From Bacillales bacterium (GTDB lineage Bacteria; Bacillota_I; Bacilli_A; RF39; UBA660): 64,000 nt of DNA. Position numbers and translations under genes: made by a program. Shown here one piece after another: positions 53,942-55,191 of the stretch (positions within the stretch are counted from its first letter, which is position 1; every line of letters starts with the position of its first letter). Under the pieces are notes generated by a model. It did not search any database, was not told where the DNA came from, and saw only the letters and a list, made by a program, of their open reading frames with translations. The stretch lies in contig JAEEKZ010000007.1 of assembly GCA_016288635.1 (NCBI GenBank), positions 12,649-76,648 on the forward strand, given 5' to 3'.

Positions 53942-54260
53942 AAAAAAATCAGATTGACTGGATCTGATTTCTAGTTTTTTCATATTGCTAATCGGTCAAG
54001 ATAACAATATGCTTATTCAGTGAGTTTTCTTTCTCTATATGCATACAACCTAATAGCGAATAAGAATATCTATTTTTCAAGATACTATAATACATCATGA
54101 GAACTGATATATTATTATTATACACTTGTTCTGCACAATAATTATATACCAAACACCACGGCGGTATACAGGCATATTATTCTTTAACTATATATTTTAT
54201 TATATCTCTATAATATAATATATAATAATATACCCTTTATGTATACCATATCTATTAGGT
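53942..54260 (-). ncRNA. Candidate structured sRNA, copy 1 (~320 nt)
   Basis: Runs from the promoter at 54295-54267 to the terminator AAAUCAGAU-CCAGUCA-AUCUGAUUU followed by U7. No conserved ORF. Helices covary with copy 2. Confidence 0.6.
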
Positions 54261-54266
54261 AATTTA

Positions 54267-54295
54267 ATTGTAATATATTATTATTAATTTGTAAA
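54267..54295 (-). promoter_or_regulatory. Promoter TTTACA-17-TACAAT of sRNA copy 1
   Basis: On the minus strand, -35 at 54295-54290 and -10 at 54272-54267. Confidence 0.6.
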
Positions 54296-54426
54296 TACTT
54301 TTTTGTAAATTTTTTTAAAAAACTTTACATTTTTCTAAATGCTGATTTTGTAAACCCTCTCTATTGCCCATAAAACCGCTGATTCTCGATTTTGTAAATC
54401 TGCTTTTTTATTGTGTAAAATTGCAT

Positions 54427-54754
54427 AAAAAAAATAACATTGACTGGATGTTATTTCTAGTTTGTTCATATTACCGATCAGTCACGATAGCAATATGCTT
54501 ATTCAATGAGTTTTCTTTCTCTACATGCATATAACTTAATAGCGAATAAGAATATCTATTTTTCAAGATACTATAATATACATCGTAAGAATCAATATAT
54601 TATCGTTAGCACTTTTTTTGCCAAACAATTATATACCAAATACTACGGCGACATACAAGCTGTTACAAAAGATCGATATGATACGATTAACCAATATCCC
54701 TATTGCAAATATCATATCAGTAACACACTTCTCCGTATGTCATATCTATTAAGT
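54427..54754 (-). ncRNA. Candidate structured sRNA, copy 2 (~328 nt, most divergent)
   Basis: Runs from the promoter at 54789-54761 to the terminator AAAUAACAU-CCAGUCA-AUGUUAUUU followed by U8. Confidence 0.6.
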
Positions 54755-54760
54755 AATTTC

Positions 54761-54789
54761 ATTATAATATAGTATTTTTTGTTTGTAAA
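54761..54789 (-). promoter_or_regulatory. Promoter TTTACA-17-TATAAT of sRNA copy 2
   Basis: On the minus strand, -35 at 54789-54784 and -10 at 54766-54761. Confidence 0.6.
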
Positions 54790-54872
54790 TAGTTTTAAAA
54801 TAAATTTTTATTTAATTTACAATTTTTCTTTTATTCCCTTTTATTACTGGGAAATCTAATATTAGTAAGCAC

Positions 54873-55191
54873 AAAAAAATCAGATTGACTGGATCTGATT
54901 TCTAGTTTTTTCATATTGCTAATCGGTCAAGATAACAATATGCTTATTCAGTGAGTTTTCTTTCTCTATATGCATATAACTTAATAGCGAATAAGAATAT
55001 CTATTTTTCAAGATATTATAAATCATCATGAGAACTGATATATTACGATTTTACACTTGTTCTGCAAAATATAATATACCGAATACCACGGCGACATACA
55101 AGCGGATTACCTAAATGATATAATAGACACATATCTCTATGATCAAAATTATATCAGTAACACACTTTTAAGTATGTCTGTTCTATTAAGT
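54873..55191 (-). ncRNA. Candidate structured sRNA, copy 3 (~319 nt)
   Basis: Runs from the promoter at 55226-55198 to a terminator identical to that of copy 1, followed by U7. Confidence 0.6.

Follow-up and report, generated by a model that had tools for sequence, protein, structure and literature searches.

Three tandem copies of a structured RNA related to the PGK motif: candidate stand-alone RNAs with a self-complementary element

We analysed a 64,000-nt stretch of DNA from a Bacillales bacterium (GenBank assembly GCA_016288635.1, contig JAEEKZ010000007.1, positions 12,649 to 76,648; this whole stretch is called the window). Three direct repeats, spaced by 486 and 445 nt, lie on its minus strand in an intergenic gap of 1.5 kb. 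We give a probability of about 0.6 to the reading that they encode a stand-alone, separately transcribed and possibly self-associating RNA rather than a leader of pgk, the phosphoglycerate kinase gene. The predicted transcription signals can be shown from the sequence and the helices by covariation, and a family relationship, to the PGK RNA of Rfam, can be shown as well.

The locus would consist of three tandem genes, each for a structured non-coding RNA of ~320 nt and each with its own sigma-70-type promoter. In the proposed fold, the 5′ strand of a helix called P1 would pair ~200 nt downstream, inside a second helix, P2, and the resulting pseudoknot would close a lineage-specific 5′ domain, formed here by a helix enclosing an insert hairpin, called helix (b), and by a long hairpin. 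Inside P2 would lie a self-complementary element (Ppal) and an invariant hairpin, GAG-AAAGAAAA-CUC (P3). P4 would follow P2, its loop complementary to the loop of the final intrinsic terminator, and the A-rich 5′ flank of this terminator would be able to pair with the U tail. The terminated RNA itself would be the functional product, presumably a stable and abundant trans-acting RNA.

The units and their borders are given below. Bit scores refer to R1, a covariance model (CM) built from 22 relatives of the RNA with the copies of the window and of contig L165, from a related species, excluded.

55383-56327: 3-hydroxyacyl-CoA dehydrogenase (3HCDH) gene, one border of the gap
55198..55226, minus strand: copy 3 promoter, TTTACA-17-TATAAT, 11/12 consensus matches; P1 begins 7 nt past the -10 hexamer
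54873..55193, minus strand: copy 3 transcript (predicted), ~320 nt, from promoter to U7 tail; CM R1 77.7 bits on 54869-55005
54761..54789, minus strand: copy 2 promoter, TTTACA-17-TATAAT, 11/12 consensus matches
54428..54756, minus strand: copy 2 transcript (predicted), ~328 nt, the divergent middle paralogue; CM R1 84.9 bits
54267..54295, minus strand: copy 1 promoter, TTTACA-17-TACAAT, 10/12 consensus matches
53942..54262, minus strand: copy 1 transcript (predicted), ~320 nt; CM R1 76 bits
53498-53884, minus strand: open reading frame (ORF) of 128 aa, the other border, downstream of the array

In all three copies the unit ends with an 11-bp terminator hairpin followed by at least seven U. 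A simple terminator scan was blank here and is uninformative, since it demands at least three G-C pairs and these terminators have two. A fourth copy, sought by BLAST and with CM R1 across the 64-kb window, was not found. An independent metagenome contig (L122) is 100% identical over the whole 1.5-kb intergenic region, so that the array is not an assembly artefact and the triplication is real. In addition, a scan of metagenomes yielded L165 (3429 nt), in which the 3HCDH gene is followed, as in the window, by three RNA copies, then by the 128-aa ORF and last by a gene with a VTT domain. Its copies are 80–88% identical to those of the window, and the middle copies of the two contigs are reciprocal best matches (83%), which indicates that the middle paralogue, at least, predates the species split. 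ORFs of 54 and 44 aa inside the copies are not common to all of them, and small coding ORFs were for this reason dropped as an explanation.

The original prediction, made from the window alone, was that several helices are kept by compensatory changes between the copies and that these therefore encode a structured RNA. The sequences and coordinates it quoted all proved exact on re-reading, RNAalifold applied to the three copies recovers its helices, and support became stronger once sequences were added, in the alignment A3 (six sequences: the three window copies and their three L165 orthologues) and in the family alignment described below. Fourteen helices with 111 pairs make up the A3 structure. 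Pairing holds in 97.1% of cells, compared to 29–45% when partners are slid by 1–3 columns, and 18 pairs are changed on both sides, compared to 3–4 in the slid controls. In this covariation test on the six copies, 0 of 500 shuffles reached the observed values. The terminator stem (AAAUCAGAU/AUCUGAUUU versus AAAUAACAU/AUGUUAUUU, with the loop CCAGUCA constant) and helix (b) (GGUAUAC/GUAUACC versus GACAUAC/GUAUGUC) each show two double changes and are 100% paired in A3, and the stems of the insert hairpin vary with compensation as well (3 + 2 double-change pairs). The 31-nt pre-terminator hairpin, called (c) and identical to P4, is also 100% paired and carries, exactly as had been claimed, one-sided G-C/G-U exchanges only among these copies; in the family as a whole, double changes are seen at 6/6 of the outer P4 pairs that form its base.

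RNAalifold also yields a 9-bp long-range helix, P1, in which ACUUAAUAG at the 5′ end pairs with CUAUUAAGU ~200 nt downstream and where copy 1 differs by a U-A to C-G double change. The compensation in P1, helix (b) and the terminator is copy-specific, which shows selection on each copy as a molecule of its own. The long hairpin of the 5′ domain (A3 columns 112–176), which holds the segment GGUAUAU and has seven double-change pairs, was absent from the original prediction, and so were the features that are most informative: P1, the crossing P2, the palindromic element, the complementarity between the loops of hairpin (c) and of the terminator, and the link to the Rfam PGK family. Single-copy folds gave an identical architecture from every copy, with a minimum free energy for copy 3 of -76.8 kcal/mol compared to -56.9 +/- 4.4 for 100 dinucleotide shuffles (z = -4.56). 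The elements are placed as follows.

55183..55191, minus strand: copy 3 P1 5′ strand, ACUUAAUAG; partner 54979-54987
54746..54754, minus strand: copy 2 P1 5′ strand, ACUUAAUAG; partner 54534-54542
54252..54260, minus strand: copy 1 P1 5′ strand, ACCUAAUAG; partner CUAUUAGGU at 54048-54056, with the double change relative to the other copies
55093..55178, minus strand: copy 3 helix (b), arms 55172-55178 and 55093-55099 around insert hairpin 55100-55167
54650..54741, minus strand: copy 2 helix (b), arms 54735-54741 and 54650-54656 around insert hairpin 54657-54730
54163..54247, minus strand: copy 1 helix (b), arms GGUAUAC 54241-54247 and GUAUACC 54163-54169, insert hairpin 54170-54236; two double changes relative to the other copies
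55027..55090, minus strand: copy 3 long hairpin of the 5′ domain, including GGUAUAU (helices 6-7 of A3)
54584..54647, minus strand: copy 2 long hairpin of the 5′ domain (A3 structure)
54096..54160, minus strand: copy 1 long hairpin of the 5′ domain (A3 structure)
54997..55016, minus strand: copy 3 small hairpin with loop UGAAAAAU, immediately 5′ of P2 (A3 structure)
54552..54571, minus strand: copy 2 small hairpin 5′ of P2 (A3 structure)
54066..54085, minus strand: copy 1 small hairpin 5′ of P2 (A3 structure)
54943..54995, minus strand: copy 3 conserved core; Rfam PGK match of 27.8 bits, sub-threshold
54990-54995, 54979-54987 and 54967-54978, minus strand: in the copy 3 core, P2 5′ strand CUUAUU, P1 3′ strand and palindrome UAUAUGCAUAUA
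54953-54966 and 54943-54948, minus strand: in the copy 3 core, P3 and P2 3′ strand AAUAAG
54498..54550, minus strand: copy 2 conserved core (P2, P1 3′ strand, palindrome UAUAUGCAUGUA, P3); Rfam PGK match of 23.5 bits
54012..54064, minus strand: copy 1 conserved core (P2, P1 3′ strand, palindrome UGUAUGCAUAUA, P3); Rfam PGK match of 26.6 bits
54912..54942, minus strand: copy 3 P4, hairpin (c); loop UGAC 54926-54929, complementary to terminator loop GUCA 54886-54889
54467..54497, minus strand: copy 2 P4; loop UGAC(UG) at 54481-54484
53981..54011, minus strand: copy 1 P4; loop UGAC at 53995-53998
54873..54908, minus strand: copy 3 AAACU motif (54904-54908), terminator hairpin (54875-54903, loop CCAGUCA) and U tail
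54428..54463, minus strand: copy 2 AAACU motif, terminator hairpin (54430-54458) and U tail; the stem bears both double changes
53942..53977, minus strand: copy 1 AAACU motif, terminator hairpin (53944-53972) and U tail

At Rfam gathering thresholds the RNA copies have no match, the only family found in the window being the T-box. In a permissive search of 1801 nt, the 3′ third of each copy matches the full PGK RNA model (RF03040) at the scores listed above, with E = 1.2–8; all three scores lie below the gathering cut-off of 50.8 bits. No other Rfam family matched the region at E <= 10, and RNase P, 6S, SRP and tmRNA were discarded on this ground. The outer helix CUUAU/AUAAG is common to PGK RNA and the window RNAs (CUUAUU/AAUAAG in the three copies, CUUAUY/RAUAAG in Rfam), as are the invariant P3 hairpin within it, identical in all three copies, and a hairpin directly 3′ of it. 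The loop of this last hairpin has the consensus ACUGAUAAU (CUGAUAA) in PGK RNA, whereas the P4 loop of the window copies is UUGACCGA or GUGACUGA, with the terminator loop changed to match. The window RNAs differ further by their 5′ domain of ~190 nt, their arrangement as three tandem genes and the lack of a pgk gene nearby in the window. As for the Rfam model, it covers 92 nt and leaves out P1, the terminator with the AAACU motif ahead of it, the contact between the two loops, and the palindrome as a paired element.

Intermediates bridge this distance. By BLAST, the 3′-terminal ~128 nt of the window copies, a stretch that takes in the terminator, show 73–79% identity to L074, L008 and L107, and L107, which is 75–77% identical to the window copies, scores 50.9 bits with the PGK model, just above the cut-off; L054, L065, L093 and L117 reach 86–93 bits with the same model. 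CM R1 matches precisely the three copies in the 64-kb window (76–85 bits, E about 1e-10) and, elsewhere, three copies in L165 and two in L035, and it also finds the Rfam-grade PGK members L054, L117, L093 and L015 at 35–43 bits. Because the intermediates are graded and one covariance model finds both ends of the series, we link the window RNA to PGK RNA; judged by its sequence, it is a divergent relative that lies beyond the reach of the Rfam model. PGK RNA is named for its position upstream of phosphoglycerate kinase genes, a position not found here, where the downstream gene is the 128-aa ORF without family match. The motif was reportedly first put forward as a candidate RNA by Weinberg et al. 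2017. Nothing relevant to it was found in the literature searched, and the main text of that paper has no mention of PGK.

A scan of a genome collection with a pattern of the shared core gave at least 119 loci, and those listed come mostly from metagenome-assembled genomes (MAGs) of uncultured gut and rumen "Bacilli", Erysipelotrichaceae, Tenericutes or Mycoplasmatota. Seven matches (L079 and L080 of Brachyspira, L017, L026, L040, L058 and L088) were set aside as chance pattern matches, having no BLAST or CM similarity. The search of viral contigs gave 0 matches, and a phage origin was dropped on this count. An alignment of sequence only with MAFFT misregistered P1 and the palindrome, which were 55% and 47% paired and did better when slid. 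P1 was tested per sequence, anchored on the promoter and with swapped partners as controls, and a model-based alignment, A6, was used as well. The terminator stem is badly aligned in A6 (57% paired); terminators were located by the AAACU anchor, and 12 terminators of type A stayed unassigned.

Across 79 distinct sequences, 84.9% of cells are paired compared to 36–47% in slid controls, and the covariation score is 0.369 compared to 0.06–0.08. In nearly every locus a promoter near consensus stands 110–300 nt upstream of the core, with 11–12 of 12 matches in 130 of 182 candidate members. The 5′ nucleotides of the transcript pair with a segment just 3′ of the P2 5′ strand to form P1: the 72 distinct duplexes have a mean length of 8.3 bp, compared to 6.3 bp with swapped partners, and begin 3–8 nt past the -10 hexamer in 94/102 members; the window copies, with 9 bp each, conform. 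P2 is 100% paired in the 79 sequences (99.7% in the other alignment), one of its pairs being C-G in 38, U-A in 37 and A-U in three, and a scan in which P2 was not fixed returned CUUAUU/AAUAAG, CCUAUA/UAUAGG and CUCAUC/GAUGAG. As the P1 3′ strand lies inside P2, the topology suggests that P1 and P2 form an H-type pseudoknot, one of whose loops would be the variable 5′ domain.

The loops of P4 and of the terminator change in concert. A P4 loop CUGAUA goes with the terminator loop UAUCAG in 28 of 40 sequences of its class, the other 12 having no recognised terminator motif; we take these 12 type-A sequences to be cases of misassigned terminators. CUGACA goes with UGUCAG in 12/12 and GAC[UC] with NGUCA in 9/9, and cross-class pairings among the listed classes were not found. 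On the model-based alignment, C-G to U-A swaps are seen at 3 of 6 loop-loop pairs. In the window, UGAC faces GUCA, extending to UUGAC/GUCAA or UGACUG/CAGUCA, with the AAACU motif ahead of the terminator. Two type-A loci, L023 and L118, are exceptions to the rule: their terminator loops, UUCG and GUAAA, are not complementary to the P4 loop CUGAUAA, and in L023 the sequence UAUCA stands directly 3′ of P4. Two further pairings were considered and abandoned: one between AAACUAG and a strand of P1 or P4, for which inspection gave no consistent correlation, and one between the A-rich P3 loop and the U tail, which is possible everywhere, P3 being invariant. In extent the family thus exceeds the 92-nt Rfam model, and covariation is seen in every helix that is added.

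Ppal, which lies between P1 and P3, is self-complementary about its centre; its forms in the window are UAUAUGCAUAUA, UAUAUGCAUGUA and UGUAUGCAUAUA. A loop-less self-complementary stretch of at least 10 nt is present in 89 of 105 distinct segments, compared to 21% of shuffles, and 57 distinct sequences are represented. Its central tetranucleotide can be AAUU, GAUC, UGCA, AGCU, GUAC, ACGU, GGCC, UCGA, UAUA or AUAU. In 78% of the rows of the model alignment the centre reads as a Watson-Crick palindrome, compared to 6.8% for tetranucleotides in general; some of the apparent exceptions, window rows included, stem from an alignment shift of one column. At the two pairs in the middle, one of which would join adjacent nucleotides, complementarity reaches 90%, and four to five pair types occur. 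In OLE and GOLLD, switching between palindromes (GGCC, GAUC, AGCU) was taken as evidence that loops pair between molecules (Kretsch et al. 2025, PMC12286853). Since neighbouring nucleotides are unable to pair within one chain, we infer, by the same argument as these authors, that the element pairs two RNA molecules, and it may thereby mediate homodimers, or heterodimers of the paralogues. More tentatively, and with somewhat more doubt than confidence, the PGK motif might be seen as the core of widespread stand-alone RNAs of 230–335 nt, in uncultured gut and rumen Bacilli-like bacteria, that form dimers or oligomers via Ppal and possibly via the P4-terminator loops, the three-gene array supplying distinct protomers.

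What follows the RNA genes bears directly on their status. Among the listed loci, the downstream proteins (n = 84) are MurG in 19 cases and PGK in nine, followed by LPG synthase, Fic, FtsW, LepA, HU, dCMP deaminase and others, and for some members, such as the tandem pair of L035, the next gene is convergent. In the spacers examined between terminator and gene, a separate -10 element is present in 13/13 cases for murG, 2/2 for lepA, 6/6 for pgk and 2/2 for type B. The murG loci (L006, L012, L024, L025, L034, L037, L041, L048, L065, L092, L100, L117 and L119) all share an invariant 19-nt sequence, CATATAATTATGATATAAT, ~12–15 nt upstream of the murG ribosome-binding site (RBS), which is probably an extended -10 promoter. 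For lepA the corresponding element is TGATATAAT, for pgk TATATAAT and for type B TTGCAT-17-TATACT. An earlier impression that the spacers are mostly promoterless, based on a score needing both hexamers, was dropped when reading of the spacers revealed these conserved extended -10 elements. The 128-aa ORF likewise has an apparent promoter of its own, TTGCAT-17-TATAAT at 53940-53912 of the window and TTGACT-17-TATAAT in L165 (ORF L165:2251-2637). Because the downstream genes are diverse and mostly have -10 elements of their own, the RNA reads as stand-alone, and because three full promoter-RNA-terminator units stand in a row and are conserved in two species, an RNA product is favoured over a leader. 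In murG-context genomes the RNA gene is found between ftsW and murG.

Several points weigh against this reading. The next gene is on the same strand in 98/107 cases, with a median of 73 nt from terminator to start codon, and a spacer of 19 nt in L074 and L008, or of 42 nt in L004 and L082, leaves no space for a separate promoter, so that the genes which follow must rely on read-through, as after a leader. Transcript ends, abundance and terminator efficiency are predictions from sequence. The family samples were drawn by pattern, with P3 fixed in all scans and P2 also in the first, and their sequences are phylogenetically related, so that counts of compensatory cells are not counts of independent events. 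As for dimerisation, self-complementarity is the argument for it, and alternatively the palindrome may act at the level of the DNA or bind a dimeric protein. Finally, a loop-loop contact to a terminator hairpin can also resemble the expression platform of a riboswitch. Such an attenuator, riboswitch-like or responsive to a protein or RNA, in which the core senses a signal and the P4-terminator contact sets termination, is possible though we hold it unlikely; the three copies would then be stacked gates or duplicated leaders before the 128-aa ORF. It would account for the orientation and short spacing of the next genes, including the four loci without promoter room, for the structural coupling of the terminator to the conserved core, for which the kissing loop of cobalamin riboswitches offers an analogy, and for the fact that subtypes stay with one gene across species (murG, pgk, lepA); it also agrees with the class Cis-reg given to PGK RNA in Rfam. 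However, a strong promoter and a terminator for each of three copies are odd in a leader, the downstream genes have no common function and are sometimes convergent, and the spacers that run from terminator to RBS have conserved a -10 element, often an extended one, in murG, lepA, pgk and type-B loci as well as in L165. For the palindromic element a switch offers no obvious role, and no alternative antiterminator pairing was seen by eye, with RNAalifold or in minimum free energy folds, no dedicated search having been made. The stand-alone RNA and the attenuator are not strictly exclusive.

The remaining explanations fare less well. A local switch had also been proposed, in which the 3′ arm of helix (b) swaps between its own 5′ arm and the downstream GGUAUAU to give two functional conformers. 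The alternative 7-bp helix can indeed form in all six copies (95% of cells paired), but its changes are one-sided and wobble-tolerant, without double changes, and 354 of 500 shuffles do equally well; as the G/U-rich arm tolerates transitions via wobble, retention of this pairing is expected by chance. In addition, GGUAUAU is already engaged in the compensated long hairpin, and the 5′ domain is absent or different elsewhere in the family, which makes the switch improbable. An array of RNA repeats with a terminator and then a small ORF behind it also recalls the antitoxin RNA of a type III toxin-antitoxin system or another defence module, with the 128-aa protein as partner. Here, in contrast, the units are ~320 nt long with promoters of their own rather than short repeats processed from one transcript, the 128-aa ORF, syntenic in the related species, matches nothing in PADLOC, Pfam or NCBIfam, hence no ToxN/AbiE-type call, the relatives of the RNA are mostly single-copy beside unrelated housekeeping genes, and the search of viral contigs gave no match, so that we give this idea very little credence. 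Still less plausible is a non-functional tandem duplication, or a repeat kept at the DNA level: the tandem arrangement and AT-rich palindromes in the spacers would suit it, whereas RNA-pairing compensatory changes in many helices, conserved promoters and terminators, and the upkeep of the array and its paralogues in a second species speak against it.

These palindromes, with TGTAAA/TTTACA arms at 54304-54329, 55235-55260 and 54783-54822, lie directly upstream of the -35 element of each promoter or overlap it. The one at the copy 1 promoter has 13-nt arms that are 92% complementary, and further TTTACA boxes occur in the spacers at 54344-54409 and 55280-55352. The promoter-adjacent palindromes could be an operator or an UP-like element.

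Elsewhere in the window (27.7% G+C), a T-box leader at 38808-38985 on the minus strand (101 bits, cut-off 93) suggests a Bacillota-type host. Near the array are genes for an EAL/GGDEF protein and for a protein similar to F420-0:gamma-glutamyl ligase (48888-50270 and 56417-57610, both on the minus strand). The neighbouring genes indicate a free-living or gut Bacillota-like organism, not a minimal Mollicute; the nearest relatives of the RNA are from rumen and gut MAGs of Bacilli or Erysipelotrichaceae. Multiple members also occur on other contigs: L035 has its tandem pair at 3762-4340 (minus strand), followed by the convergent gene, L152 has two family matches ~700 nt apart and L049 two matches 1.2 kb apart. 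L047, from a MAG of uncultured gut 'Bacilli', carries an OLE RNA (RF01071, 231.7 bits) at 38-524 on the plus strand, ~6.7 kb off its PGK-family RNA, and L099 combines a family member with a group II intron D1-D4 match at 6977-7147 on the plus strand (129.7 bits).

PGK RNA is one of many orphan motifs labelled as presumed cis-regulators on thin evidence. The window locus and its relatives reveal the 92-nt model as one part of a promoter-to-terminator RNA of ~300 nt. New features of the family are the pseudoknot of P1 and P2, the contact between the P4 and terminator loops, and the palindromic element. Palindromic elements have recently been shown to hold RNA-only complexes together (PMC12286853). 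If the stand-alone reading is true, the family would be re-classed from leader to stand-alone RNA, an improved model would become available for annotating uncultured gut and rumen genomes, and the RNA would be a small, tractable candidate for the study of RNA quaternary structure. Nature has in effect supplied the mutants for structure probing, in the form of three conserved paralogues, each with its own set of compensated helices.

The array invites comparison with the tandem small RNA genes PrrF1/2, OmrA/B and LhrC1-5, which are adjacent paralogues, each with a promoter and a terminator. The paralogues of the window share this arrangement; those small RNAs, however, are Hfq- or seed-based and roughly 60 to 150 nt long, while the window RNA, at ~320 nt, has a core with a pseudoknot and lacks an evident seed region. 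In the cobalamin riboswitch, a regulatory hairpin downstream has a loop that pairs with one in the conserved domain (L5-L13), and the P4 and terminator loops would do likewise here. The PGK-family RNA differs in that no ligand, consistent regulon or sequence similarity is seen, and in that its partner hairpin is a strong intrinsic terminator, mostly followed by another promoter. Closer in kind are OLE, GOLLD and ROOL (Kretsch et al. 2025, PMC12286853) and raiA RNA, which are likewise stand-alone, intricately folded and of unknown function. They are far bigger than the 230–335 nt of PGK-family RNA and have no sequence or Rfam relationship to it, and OLE, GOLLD and ROOL form homo-oligomers, whereas oligomerisation is inferred for the PGK family. 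The switching of tetranucleotides among palindromes in OLE and GOLLD nevertheless has the same pattern as that in the PGK-family element, for which an extended duplex is as probable as a kissing loop, since its stem plus loop are wholly self-complementary.

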